64,000 bases of DNA from a virus (IMGVR_UViG_3300022723_000207:1-64000); one strand, 5' to 3'. Shown: positions 18,051-27,021, numbered from the stretch's first letter. Program-made: numbers and translations. The notes: a model not told the origin generated them from the sequence alone.

Positions 18051-18063
18051 AGTAATTTAAATA

Positions 18064-18615
18064 CTACGAACCAAGAAGCTGATTGACGAATCCCTTGCCG
18101 TAGTGTTTGGCAAGCTTCTTCATAGTGTCGAAGCTAGGCTTGCGAGATCCAGTCTTGTAGCGGCTGATGGTAGATTTGTGAACATCAATCTCATCTGCCA
18201 TATCATCTTGAGTTTCACCCTTTGAACGAGCGGCTTTAGCAATAGGGGACTGTTCGCCCTTCTTACGCTTGTCAGCTTCTTTTTCAAACTTCTCTTTATT
18301 CTTTTTAGACTGTTCGTCTTCGTCTTCTTCCTCAGTGATTGCTTGAATAATTTGCATAGCACTATGTCCGAGATCATCACGGACCCGGCGGTATTTATTG
18401 TCAATAAATTCATATAAATTGGTTTTGAAATCGTTGAATTCTTCTAGTTCCCAAGATTCGCAGATATCCCTTAGATCGCGATATGTTTTTAGCATATCGC
18501 CAGCTTTGTAATCGTGTCCTAATTCTGCTAGATCTGCTAAGACAATCACTCGACCATCAGCATCGATGTGGCTTAAAAATTCTAACAAAAAATCACTGCG
18601 TGGGCCAAATTCCAT
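18064..18615 (-). CDS. XRE-family HTH protein with N-terminal extension
   Basis: TQDDMADEIDVHKSTISRYKTGSRKPSFDTMKKLA. Confidence 0.8.
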   Translation of the reverse strand: MEFGPRSDFLLEFLSHIDADGRVIVLADLAELGHDYKAGDMLKTYRDLRDICESWELEEFNDFKTNLYEFIDNKYRRVRDDLGHSAMQIIQAITEEEDEDEQSKKNKEKFEKEADKRKKGEQSPIAKAARSKGETQDDMADEIDVHKSTISRYKTGSRKPSFDTMKKLAKHYGKGFVNQLLGS

Positions 18616-18645: not shown

Positions 18646-18846
18646 CTAATAAGTTTTATGCTGGGGTCGCACAATGTCGTTTAATGATAGTTCTCCATTA
18701 TTAATTTTGTTCAATATTGTTTCGATTTCATTTTCTAATGCTATTCTTTGAGTGTTTAAATTTTCAATTTTAATTCTTTCTGTATTATGTGACATCTTTA
18801 AATGTACAGTAAATAATTTGTCAATGCAGTTACCTAATGTGTCCAT
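18646..18846 (-). CDS. DUF4254-like protein, C-terminal half
   Basis: MDTLGNCIDKL...NLNTQRIALENEI...QHKTY; ATG at 18846 with GAGG RBS inside the upstream endonuclease gene. Confidence 0.6.
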   Translation of the reverse strand: MDTLGNCIDKLFTVHLKMSHNTERIKIENLNTQRIALENEIETILNKINNGELSLNDIVRPQHKTY

Positions 18847-19648
18847 GCAGATTCCTCTCAAAGTTAAATTTTTTCCTTGACATATATATTGAGCTGCTAT
18901 CATAAAACCAGTTATAGATTGACAGTATTTTAGATTTATCAGTAGTCCTAATCCTAAATAAATCTTTTAAGTCATTACCATGCTTGGTTTTTCTAAACCT
19001 TGCGCTTCTTTTATCACAATATACTTTAATGCTGCATCCTATTTCTTTTAATATTTTGTTTATACTATGCAGGATATTATAGTGCGGTGAAGAAATATTA
19101 AACTCTCTTGGTCCTATAGACCCATCGCCGTCAAAAAAACCACGCATCAAATGGCGATGAGATTTTATCTCTTTAAATATCTTAGGGTTTCCATCATATT
19201 TAAAATTATTCCAGCCAATAGATATTAAACTTTTACATATCGATTTTGAGCATATTTCGATCTTAGACGTCTTGCTATTCGGTGATATCCTATTATTGCT
19301 TATTATTATTGGAATTGATTCGCATACGTATGCACCAAATTTTTTTAAATGATCGTAATCTTTGTAAGATAATTCGACTACTATTTTGTTTTTGTTGATA
19401 TGGCCGTCAGCTAGCAAGAAGCCTAGCCAATAATCACCATATTCTGTGTTGATTGGCCATTTACTGAATGTTTTATGATGATATGAATGGTACCTTCTAA
19501 TACTAACCCCTAATTTTCTAATGAATGATGTCATATTATTAGGAGCCACTGAAAATTCTCTAGCCAGACTAGAAGAACTTCTACCATTTTCATATTCATT
19601 GATGATATACGATTTTACATTGTTGTCTAAATCAACTAATTTGGACAT
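18830..19648 (-). mobile_element. Free-standing double-motif LAGLIDADG homing endonuclease with N-terminal HTH
   Basis: YWLGFLLADG and LMRGFFDGDG; AT-rich; overlaps both neighbours. Confidence 0.85.
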
Positions 19649-19994
19649 TTTTGGCTGCTACTTTATCTATTGCATCCATTAGATTGGCTCTTTGAACATT
19701 CAGATCACAACATCTTTTGATTGTCATGTGTAATTCTTTAAGATTGTTATCATATTGTTTTATAAATTCATCAGTATCCATAAATCTTATAGCATATAAT
19801 ACTTCCTGGTTTGACCACATTTGAGTAGTCACACATGCTAATTTTGATATTAACGTACCAACAGAGTCGCACTCTGATGGGTCATTCTCTTTTAAGGCGT
19901 CTAGATAGTGTCTGCCATCTTTTCCGATTTCTTTCTTGATGTTAACATGGTCAGTTGAATCTAGTTTGTCCATTATTTTGTCATATATGAACAC
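19632..19994 (-). CDS. DUF4254-like protein, N-terminal half
   Basis: DSVGTLISKL...MWSNQE...IKRCCDLNVQRANLMDAID. Confidence 0.6.
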   Translation of the reverse strand: MFIYDKIMDKLDSTDHVNIKKEIGKDGRHYLDALKENDPSECDSVGTLISKLACVTTQMWSNQEVLYAIRFMDTDEFIKQYDNNLKELHMTIKRCCDLNVQRANLMDAIDKVAAKNVQIS

Positions 19995-20040
19995 GTATTG
20001 TTTCTCCTTGTTGTTTACAATATTTTTGGTTTAAATACGT

Positions 20041-20545
20041 CCCCACCGCTTTCCCATGGGAGATCCCCTTGGAAAAAGATCTTAAAGAATGTTTCCGAAC
20101 TCTTCTGAACTTAGGTCTCTAGGCTGCTATTCTTTTATTTGCGGTAGTGTTTCCACTATCCTCTGAGTTTCGGGTTATAAAACCCGCTCCCATTTCAGCA
20201 GCCGGGGCAGAATCGGACAAAGCACTAGTGGGGAACTTCTAGTGTCCGCATTACGCGGAGCCTCCTTGTCAGACCTTATTCAGATCATTCTATGTCCCGA
20301 AGATCTTTCCAAGACGAACAGACGACACGTGTAGACCCAAGGCGAAGCCCTCAAGAGCCAACCGTCTATTCTCGATCCATCCACGCCCCGGTGGTTTTAA
20401 CGCCCGATTAGGCATGGAGGGTTCTTGCTAAGACCCCTGGTCGAAATCAGCCTGATTAGGTTTCGCCAAAAGTTTGCGGTCATTTCTCTAGTCTCTGTGC
20501 CTAATGGCATCTCGATGTAGACCTGACTTTTGGGGTTCGGTTTTT
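20041..20545 (-). ncRNA. Unclassified large structured RNA candidate (~500 nt)
   Basis: No tracked ORF and GC-richer than flanks. Nested long-range helices 20068-20083/20300-20313, 20104-20118/20271-20284, 20122-20128/20197-20203, plus many hairpins. Strand is inferred from a GAAA loop and the upstream GTATTT motif. Confidence 0.6.
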
Positions 20546-20578
20546 GGATTTAAATACACACAAGGACAAAAATAAGTC

Positions 20579-21145
20579 ATGAAACTAATAAACGATTTAA
20601 TAATTGAACAAAATGGCATTCTTTCTGTAGTTCGATCAGGAACTCTGATTAGAGAGACGGTAGAAGATTTCTTTTCTCAGTATGTTTCTGAGATACCAAA
20701 AAACGCTAAAATTATTAAGAATACGGTAGAAGACTTTACCGATAAGGTGGAAGGCCGTCAAACAGATGTTGACGACTTTGATATGCATCATGTGGATGTA
20801 GCAGAAGGTGAATTTATTTTTCAATCATCAGTTCCATTGACTGATGAAATCATCAGGGATTTTCAAGAGGAAATTGAGGAGCCAGTTACAGCTGAAAAAA
20901 TGGCTAACTATATTCAGGAAGATTTAGATGAAAATGATTTGTATGAAATTTTGGTCAGTAAATTATTGCCTGGTTTGGAAGGTTATACAAGAGAGGATGA
21001 TGATCGCGCAGCTGTAGTGGATTATGGCCTAAATGGTTACAATCTTAATCTGACAATCAAAATGAATATTAATCGTTATGATATGGCAGATGAACCGTTT
21101 CACAAGGGCAGTTACCGAACTGGTGGCTATTATCCAGATGCCTGA
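20579..21145 (+). CDS. Acidic hypothetical protein with MKL..IIE leader (possible internal head protein)
   Basis: Starts MKLINDLIIEQ; AAAATA 4 nt before the ATG. Confidence 0.65.
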   Translation: MKLINDLIIEQNGILSVVRSGTLIRETVEDFFSQYVSEIPKNAKIIKNTVEDFTDKVEGRQTDVDDFDMHHVDVAEGEFIFQSSVPLTDEIIRDFQEEIEEPVTAEKMANYIQEDLDENDLYEILVSKLLPGLEGYTREDDDRAAVVDYGLNGYNLNLTIKMNINRYDMADEPFHKGSYRTGGYYPDA

Positions 21146-26170: not shown

Positions 26171-27021
26171 GATAAGTCTTTCTTCAAATCGTTTAAGAAG
26201 TTAGGCAGTGCATGTCCTAATGGTTTTAATCTTTGTTTAAAATAGCCAGCTGCGTTAGAGCTTAATGGTTGGACATTAAAATCTTCTTCGATCCATCTTT
26301 CTTTGTGGTCTTTAAATTTAGAAAATACTTCTTCGTACCAATCTTTGCGAATGCACCCTGGAATTCTGTGGTTATAATATTTCATTTTCATTTTGACAGA
26401 GCGGTCTAAGACATATGAGAAATGATAAGTGTAAATGCCTGCTGCTTTAAAGATATCAGGCTGCACAGTCGGGGCCGGTAGCACACGTTTTGTTTTAGGG
26501 TCGTAGTATCCACGTTGAGGAATATGATGGATATACTTCCCTGGTGATCGGCGGAAGATCCGTTCAAAAGTGAACCAATCTCTTTTCCATCCATTTGCGC
26601 CGTGTGCTTCTATGATAGTGTCGGTATCGCCCCAGAATACGTAATTTGGGATTGAAAGGATTTGATTATGTCGGTTACTAAATTGTTTTTTAATGAATGG
26701 GATATGTGCGGGGTCAACGAATTCATCAATGTCGATGTGCCAAATGATATCGCCAGTAGCGTGCCTGCTGTATTCGTGACACATTTCATTTTTATTATTC
26801 CAATCACGCTGAATTAATTTGATTTTATTATGGGGGTCTGAATATGATTTAATAAAATCGATAGTTCCATCCTGTGAACGTCTATATCCGTTTATCTTGT
26901 TCCAAGTATTGTCTCCACCCTCGCATATAATTATTTGGTGGGCATGCGGGTAGATCAGTTTTAATTGATGCTTGATGAACGGCATGCCATCCACCACAAT
27001 CACACCATAGGTAATTTTCAT
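26167..27021 (-). CDS. GT2-like glycosyltransferase
   Basis: IIICEGG, SQDGTIDFI, IIWHIDIDEF (DxD), YHFSYV; ATG at 27021. Confidence 0.8.
   Translation of the reverse strand: MKITYGVIVVDGMPFIKHQLKLIYPHAHQIIICEGGDNTWNKINGYRRSQDGTIDFIKSYSDPHNKIKLIQRDWNNKNEMCHEYSRHATGDIIWHIDIDEFVDPAHIPFIKKQFSNRHNQILSIPNYVFWGDTDTIIEAHGANGWKRDWFTFERIFRRSPGKYIHHIPQRGYYDPKTKRVLPAPTVQPDIFKAAGIYTYHFSYVLDRSVKMKMKYYNHRIPGCIRKDWYEEVFSKFKDHKERWIEEDFNVQPLSSNAAGYFKQRLKPLGHALPNFLNDLKKDLS

Follow-up and report, generated by a model that had tools for sequence, protein, structure and literature searches.

Covariation evidence for a large, previously uncatalogued structured RNA at a divergent gene junction of an uncultured jumbo phage

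What occupies the one long interval without genes in a 64-kb segment of an uncultured phage genome, and does it act as an RNA in its own right, as the leader of a message or as a DNA signal? The segment, hereafter called the window, corresponds to the opening 64 kb of a virus record in IMG/VR (IMGVR_UViG_3300022723_000207) that totals 153 kb. This record is judged 42% complete, which assigns it to a jumbo phage. Positions given below are those of the window unless stated otherwise. The element of interest (20041-20560) sits between divergently transcribed genes. As claimed in an earlier reading made from the sequence alone, it is the only long non-coding gap: no ORF of at least 70 aa is found across 19995-20578, no other gap in the window exceeds 360 bp, and the interval stays without a coding frame under translation table 11, code 4 or a code in which TAG stands for Q. 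The G+C content of the element is 0.49-0.53 (~50%) versus 0.28-0.37 in its flanks.

The minus-strand block beside the gap codes for a DUF4254-family protein, a LAGLIDADG endonuclease, a second small DUF4254-like ORF, a HTH_3 protein and a DUF1016_N protein. The plus-strand block on the other side begins at 20579 and includes an actin-like 'volactin' gene. The flanking proteins have almost no matches among GenBank phages. The DUF4254 neighbour has 29 homologues in a large protein collection, one of which carries PF14063. Its predicted structure (pLDDT 85) is a helical bundle; comparison of the model with the PDB gave no significant match, and the fold is uninformative on the role of the RNA. 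Related loci display a DUF4254 ORF of ~120 aa followed by a separate ORF of 71-77 aa (MDTLGN...RPQHKTY; L084:5001-5607, L088:1119-1671 and L085:1557-2113), the latter 45-55% identical to the product of window positions 18646-18903 (region 18646-19994, minus strand). Because both ORFs adjoin in the relatives, the two-ORF arrangement is considered ancestral and the LAGLIDADG gene of the window a free-standing insertion between tandem genes, not the cause of a gene split. Genes of the homing-endonuclease type are found near the element. Outside the window, the 153-kb contig carries 24 tRNA genes within 107656-132713 and a tmRNA gene at 128102-128448 with the tag ADDHVSYAPVAVAA.

Folding of the single sequence is just modestly beyond that of shuffled sequences (z of -2.6 for the plus strand and -2.1 for the minus strand), and therefore proves little alone. 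Homologous loci were found by scanning IMG/VR and JGI metagenomes with an alignment of the DUF4254 protein. Three metagenome contigs carry the element at the equivalent position, immediately before a DUF4254 gene of the same orientation, with identities to the window of 76% over 458 nt (L088), 76% over 440 nt (L093) and 66% over 471 nt (L085). The loci of this group, termed group A, cluster together on a weakly supported DUF4254 tree. Alignment of the four sequences (A4) reveals long invariant blocks between helices that vary in sequence and length.

RNAalifold predicts 111 pairs on A4, of which 36 have compensatory changes. Standard pairs occupy 96.2% of the cells of these pairs versus 35-47% in controls with the 3' partners displaced by 1-3 columns; these slid controls yield 1-7 covarying pairs versus the 36 observed. 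In 500 shuffles neither the pairing nor the covariation score attained the observed value. The compensatory signal is greatest in helices H2 (7 of 10 pairs), H4 (10/15), H15 (4/6) and H17 (3/6). With four sequences as its whole basis, the secondary structure is strongly supported by covariation, and the existence of a genuine structured RNA can be considered very likely.

The consensus fold is organized in three domains and a 3' tail joined by pseudoknots (Table 1), where the sequence-only reading had seen two domains. Compensatory changes are present in two of the four pairs of H1, and H4 contains an invariant G·U. Domain 3 encloses two hairpin branches (20245-20259, 20223-20244, 20171-20186 and 20144-20156); its covariance model scores 193-235 bits on the four members and finds nothing else in ~850 kb of loci. 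A good part of the helices drawn from the single sequence recurs in this fold: those at 20104-18/20271-84 and 20122-28/20197-203, as well as the hairpins at 20143-60 (with GAAA loop on the minus strand), 20171-86, 20223-44 and 20245-59, coincide with helices that are supported by covariation or conserved. Other elements of that reading have to be abandoned. Its outermost helix (20068-83/20300-13) has 12 of 16 positions paired in the window and 5-8 of 16 in the homologues, and clashes with H4 and its 10 compensatory pairs. Pairing of CCCCA with TGGGG at the two ends clashes with the covarying H2 and with pseudoknot 3. The GACAA/TTGTC helix is not kept in L085, TTGTC being part of the covarying pseudoknot 1, and the repeated words GTAGACC and CTCGAT are not conserved in both copies.

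An exhaustive search for extra pairings identified three long-range helices that cross the nested structure. All 9 bp of pseudoknot 1 are paired in the four sequences, with four compensatory pairs that all come from L085. The 7 bp of pseudoknot 2 are likewise paired in 4/4 sequences, with one compensatory pair (G-C to A-U in L085). The six G+C-rich pairs of pseudoknot 3 are invariant, and this helix thus represents complementarity without covariation. Together the 22 pairs of the three pseudoknots are 100% paired, versus 38-50% when slid, and include five compensatory pairs. One of the three pseudoknots is strongly supported, through covariation.

In the 11-nt receptor of GAAA tetraloops, 5'-UAUGG-3' faces 5'-CCUAAG-3' in an internal loop that is flanked by G-C pairs at one end and by a U·G wobble at the other. 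In domain 3 the strand opposite CCUAAG reads UAUGG in L088 and UAAGG, UAAGG and UACGG in the other three sequences. The flanks of this internal loop are a U·G wobble (alignment columns 295/488) and GG/CC pairs (columns 298-299/483-484), both found in 4/4 sequences. The loop sequence, the GG/CC side and the U·G wobble of the 11-nt receptor are thus all found in the element, and we take the internal loop of domain 3 to have the sequence and geometry of that receptor. The hairpin that is the candidate partner is capped by G-GAAA-C in the window, L093 and L085, and by C-GAAAU-G in L088. Judged from these motifs, a contact between a GAAA tetraloop and an 11-nt receptor within domain 3 is probable.

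Table 1. Features of the element, its predicted fold and its surroundings (window positions, except for the last line).
Feature	Position	Strand	Remarks
Proposed structured RNA gene, ~500 nt, group A	20042..20542	-	block conservation and covariation in A4; no ORF; no Rfam match; predicted ends
Domain 1	20442..20539	-	H1 (20536-39/20442-45) around long variable hairpin H2 (20525-34/20464-74) and small hairpin CCU-AAUC-AGG (20451-60)
Domain 2	20297..20440	-	long closing helix H4 (20424-40/20297-313) around hairpins H5, H7, H8 and H9
Domain 3	20097..20290	-	long basal helix (20271-90/20097-118) with receptor-like motif
3' tail	20042..20096	-	variable U-rich linker, then invariant block UCUCCCAUGGGAAAGCGGUGG predicted to fold back into domains 3 and 2
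Pseudoknot 1	20401..20409 (AAUCGGGCG) with 20211..20219 (UGUCCGAUU)	-	ties domain 2 to domain 3
Pseudoknot 2	20187..20193 (AUGGGAG) with 20056..20062 (CUCCCAU)	-	3' strand in the 3' tail
Pseudoknot 3	20389..20394 (CCACCG) with 20043..20048 (CGGUGG)	-	3' strand at the RNA 3' end
Receptor-like internal loop, 5' half	20274..20278	-	UAAGG in the window; opposite CCUAAG
Receptor-like motif, 3' half	20110..20115	-	CCUAAG, invariant in 4/4 sequences
GAAA-tetraloop hairpin, candidate receptor partner	20144..20156	-	stem varies in length and sequence
Promoter-like motif GTATTTAAA	20549..20557	-	immediately before the first helix; position shared with L088 and L093
Second promoter-like motif GTATTTAAA	20030..20038	-	between the RNA 3' end and the DUF4254 gene
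DUF4254-family gene	19632..19994	-	constant same-direction downstream neighbour in all seven RNA-bearing loci
Divergent gene, 188 aa, no family assigned	20579..21145	+	RBS at most ~10 nt from the promoter-like motif of the RNA
Group B RNA	L002:955-1520; L084:4460-5010; L091:4440-5010	+ of loci	covariation

Known RNAs were sought with the covariance models of Rfam 15 (4227 families). At gathering scores there is no match anywhere in the 64-kb window, and in the element region a threshold of E up to 10 returns four chance-level matches, none better than E = 0.4. The best of these is CRISPR-DR26 (20149-20174, plus strand), with 21.9 bits for a gathering score of 39 and E = 0.4. It was set aside as a chance match since it lies on a hairpin that varies among the homologues and is not conserved. 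No match at E up to 1 was obtained for the homologous loci L088 and L093 or for L091 of the sister clade, and the island of L002, described below, gave no relevant match. The families without match include GOLLD, ROOL, OLE, HEARO, raiA, group I and group II introns, RNase P, tmRNA, 6S and SRP, and ARAGORN finds no tRNA or tmRNA in the window. The sequence-only reading had recognised no tmRNA, RNase P or intron core, which agrees with these searches. It had also proposed a new large structured phage ncRNA, to be checked by a Rfam scan and by covariation among homologues, and both outcomes uphold the proposal.

The element is rare in the sequence collections searched. No similar DNA was found among GenBank phages, scans of IMG/VR with a 17-mer and a 15-mer for further members gave chance matches only, and a 25-nt pattern is absent from 185,579 prokaryote genomes. 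No second group A copy was found in the viral collection (IMG/VR). Antisense targets of the conserved single-stranded blocks were sought in the 153-kb contig and none was found. The literature searched contains no record of the element. Fremin and Kyrpides (2023; PMC10690425) derived candidate structured RNAs from IMG/VR, the same data source and with the same covariation logic as used here; the study has 10,006 unnamed candidates and required at least three distinct sequences in IMG/VR. The element may be one of these candidates, although IMG/VR yields no second group A copy. It is a previously uncatalogued RNA that no Rfam 15 family matches.

The RNA is likely encoded by the minus strand of the window, in the sense of the DUF4254 gene. 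This strand is preferred because of the receptor motif, the GAAA hairpin, an excess of G·U pairs, the better fold and the conserved promoter-like motif. In the minus-strand structure of A4 there are 43 G·U cells versus ~6 A·C cells, with invariant G·U within covarying helices; the count is biased since the structure was predicted on that strand, and helices predicted on both strands give just 7 versus 4. The alifold consensus energy is -105.6 kcal/mol for the minus strand versus -91.4 for the opposite strand.

A minus-strand GTATTT motif had been pointed out at the right edge of the element, and it is indeed conserved in three of the four homologues and in the sister family. It belongs to the promoter-like motif GTATTTAAA, whose group B equivalent is GTATTTAAG/A. 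This motif is part of the near-palindrome TATTTAAAT and may therefore also serve the divergent plus-strand gene. The second copy, behind the RNA, has counterparts at the same place in the three homologues (GTATATAAC, GTAAATAAA and GTAAATAAA). There are seven copies of GTATTTAAA in 153 kb, five of which lie 13-129 nt upstream of the start of an ORF with the same orientation; enrichment is weak, with three copies in the window versus 1.45 expected. The possibility that the flanking TTTAAATAC repeats are a target-site duplication was considered and rejected. They are read as promoter-like because one consensus holds across phages and the motif precedes other genes. At 18056-18064 (minus strand) and at contig position 108491 (plus strand) GTATTTAAA is found 13-14 nt before ATG starts that lack a clear Shine-Dalgarno sequence, and in the group B loci the motif is likewise close to an ATG without clear Shine-Dalgarno. 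If GTATTTAAA is a promoter of the -10 type, the messages of these ORFs would be leaderless or nearly so.

The 5' end of the RNA is predicted to lie 6-8 nt after the promoter-like motif and its 3' end at the last conserved block, GCGGUGG. No intrinsic terminator was found at the 3' end, and the RNA may thus be made as the front of an operon transcript.

A second RNA is found in the same slot in a sister clade. Group B is composed of a locus in a 169.6-kb IMG/VR contig (L002) and of the metagenome loci L084 and L091. These feature a G+C-rich island of ~550 nt on the same strand as group A, behind the same GTATTTAA motif. Its members are 73-78% identical to each other and have 132 predicted pairs, 25 of them compensatory. 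Hairpins with GNRA (GAAA/GCAA) and UUCG loops occur on the DUF4254-sense strand only. No similarity between groups A and B was detected by blastn (word size 7-9), by local alignment compared with shuffles or by nhmmer, and the domain 3 covariance model run with filters off has no match in group B. The two groups share only position, strand, promoter-like motif and the presence of GNRA hairpins; they are two non-homologous or unrecognisably diverged forms. Each long contig has one form: no group B copy was found in the 153-kb contig of the window and the group A domain 3 model has no match in the sister contig. A search with a group B 23-mer returned the known contig only.

The divergent neighbour gene is shared between L085 and the group B loci, so that both RNA types lie between the same two gene families. 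In L002 an ORF of 473 aa (L002:1511-2932), with DUF4379 treble-clef and DUF723 zinc-ribbon domains, is located between the group B RNA and DUF4254; it is probably a homing-endonuclease-type gene. The loci L086 and L090 have the same divergent junction with 35-70 bp only and no insert, and no island accompanies the DUF4254 gene of a 636-kb huge phage. The RNA is therefore an accessory of a subclade.

The position of the element raises the question of a link to replication. In huge phages, bidirectional replication and origins have been deduced from GC skew (PMC7162821). For the 153-kb contig, cumulative GC skew reaches its global minimum at 20389, inside the element, and then rises over 133 kb. 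In the sister 169.6-kb contig the global minimum, at 26725, is inside the group B RNA gene (~26.2-26.8 kb). These skews come from two long contigs just 42-46% complete, and divergent transcription gives the same local signal, the coding strands being G-rich here, so that the minimum is suggestive only. In L084 and L091 (L084:1313-3417 and L091:1349-3464, minus strand) genes coding for a RNase_T/DnaQ-like exonuclease and a PHP/Pol III alpha protein of 513-515 aa are transcribed away from the RNA slot. No counterparts of these two proteins were found in the available 153 kb of the window phage.

The reading that we favour, with a probability of about 0.55, is that of a stand-alone, compactly folded phage ncRNA of ~500 nt, encoded by the minus strand and acting in trans. 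Transcription would be driven by the promoter-like GTATTTAAA of the RNA itself (20557-20549) and would run towards the co-oriented DUF4254 operon downstream, and the RNA would fold into the three helical domains and the 3' tail. The three long-range pseudoknots and the tetraloop/receptor contact would lock the domains together, with the 3' end tucked into the fold. The product would be a stable compact particle, made of RNA alone or as a ribonucleoprotein, comparable to the 'large ornate RNA' type carried by phages, and neither a message, a simple leader nor a DNA signal. Within this scheme the strand, the ends, the promoter, the docking of the tetraloop in its receptor and the action in trans are what we infer. 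A stand-alone RNA is preferred because one promoter-like element precedes it and another follows it, because the 473-aa ORF separates the sister RNA from DUF4254 in L002, and because a tucked-in 3' end is more in keeping with a stable particle than with a primer or simple leader.

The skew result makes an origin-linked transcript the main rival: the element would mark the replication origin of the clade and its transcript would be a folded pre-primer or an origin activator. This is possible but unlikely on the whole of the evidence. The position at the skew minimum fits such a role at least as well as it fits action in trans, the DnaQ-like exonuclease and Pol III alpha (PHP) genes diverge from the element in group B loci, and replacement of unrelated modules by one another, as happens at origins, would fit two unrelated RNAs in one slot. 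Yet the minimum in both contigs follows trivially from divergent transcription with G-rich coding strands, A4 shows no iterons, no A+T-rich unwinding element and no conserved repeats, and a 3' end locked by two pseudoknots is unlike that of a primer, whose 3' part must hybridise to DNA. Moreover, L086 and L090 keep the divergent junction without insert, hence the junction does not need the RNA. A bolder version, in which the element is the replication-origin RNA of a jumbo-phage clade, a compactly folded initiator or pre-primer made at the origin where groups A and B are interchangeable, must be regarded as distinctly unlikely. If true, it would represent origin specification by interchangeable non-homologous RNAs, a form undescribed for large phages. 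The sequence-only reading had offered an origin or packaging element as its alternative. The skew minimum inside the element speaks for the origin part, but a role of the DNA alone, with hairpins acting as DNA in an origin, a packaging site or a regulatory region, is hardly credible. The location between divergent genes at the skew switch and a palindrome of 10 invariant bp (TCCCATGGGA), which precedes the second promoter-like motif by ~20 bp, would suit it; against it stand the 36 compensatory pairs and the covarying 9-bp pairing of segments ~190 nt apart, the tolerance of G·U and not of A·C, and the RNA-specific tertiary motifs. The palindrome itself takes part in pairing with compensatory change.

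An RNA that acts in cis could be the structured 5' part of the DUF4254-HTH-DUF1016_N transcript, controlling its read-through, stability or processing. Such a leader is improbable, even if the RNA is always directly upstream of DUF4254 in the same direction with no terminator between them. A conserved promoter-like motif separates RNA and gene in all four members of group A, the sister RNA is retained in L002 where the 473-aa ORF intervenes, and no such leader precedes DUF4254 in over 100 further phage loci or in the close relatives L086 and L090. Known leaders are also far smaller, and far less complex in tertiary structure, than the element. In RNAs this large, pseudoknots combined with a tetraloop-receptor contact are typically the mark of a ribozyme (group I and II introns, RNase P). 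This resemblance brings up catalysis by a new ribozyme class, by a self-splicing intron or by an RNase P-like RNA, the latter two in a very divergent or degenerate form. The phage has tRNA and tmRNA genes and homing-endonuclease-type genes close to the element, which would fit. This explanation is nevertheless highly improbable: no intron or RNase P model matches the region at E up to 10 or three homologous loci at E up to 1, the element interrupts no gene and lies between a divergent gene and a promoter-like motif, inspection of A4 by eye finds neither a domain V-like hairpin nor a GUGYG 5' end, and the GGAAAG-type block is 3' of its complement, opposite to the order in RNase P. A stand-alone folded RNA acting in trans thus continues to be our preferred reading.

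Natural RNAs of at least 400 nt with pseudoknots and tetraloop-receptor contacts are, to our knowledge, few, and nearly all of those that are understood are ribozymes or unusual assemblies. A new large folded RNA in uncultured jumbo phages that carry tRNA and tmRNA genes adds a class to this short list. The contact between a GAAA tetraloop and its 11-nt receptor is known from group I domains of the P4-P6 type, group II introns and some RNase P RNAs. Domain 3 resembles the P4-P6 type in its CCUAAG opposite UAUGG, UAAGG or UACGG, in the U·G wobble and in its branch capped by a GAAA hairpin. The element differs from group I introns in that it has no exons, no intron-model match and no recognisable P3-P7 core, and its docking would be a prediction from sequence. 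Group I and II introns interrupt a host gene, but on neither strand does an ORF run through the element, which is bounded by the RBS of a divergent gene and by promoter-like motifs. Group II introns have a domain V hairpin of ~34 nt with an AGC triad, a 2-nt bulge and a GNRA loop, and a GUGYG 5' end; inspection of A4 for these features found a sole GAAA hairpin that is variable and without triad and bulge, and no GUGYG. Bacterial RNase P is recognised by its conserved regions CR-I to CR-V and the P4 pseudoknot, in which a GGAAAGUCCGG-type strand on the 5' side pairs with one of the CCGGCUU type on the 3' side. In the element the GGGAAAGCGGUGG block is at the 3' end and its complement CCACCG is 5' of the block, the reverse order.

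Origin transcripts offer another comparison, the best known being RNA II of ColE1 (~550 nt) and the R-loop transcripts of phage T4 oriF and oriG. Origin RNAs of the RNA II type are characterised by a persistent RNA-DNA hybrid, by RNase H processing that yields a 3' end able to prime DNA synthesis and by an antisense regulator. The element is similar to these transcripts as a putative non-coding transcript of ~500 nt with a predicted promoter at a likely origin marked by base composition. It differs by the 3' end buried in pseudoknots and by the lack of any sequence relation. The occurrence of a second unrelated structured RNA in the identical slot, with the skew minimum there in both lineages, makes the locus more than a catalogue entry and provides a concrete and testable link between a large folded RNA and a replication or early-control region of huge phages.

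The closest counterparts in general character are GOLLD and ROOL, large 'ornate' ncRNAs of bacteria and phages that are Rfam families and whose assemblies were visualized by cryo-EM (bioRxiv 10.1101/2024.12.08.627333). The element matches neither of their covariance models. It is not beside tRNA genes, those of the phage being at 107-133 kb, and is placed instead at a divergent junction on the GC-skew minimum, with four members known. Like GOLLD and ROOL it is a phage-carried ncRNA longer than 400 nt, multi-domain, predicted to be pseudoknotted and conserved in blocks, and its four-member family provides a starting model for searching larger assemblies.
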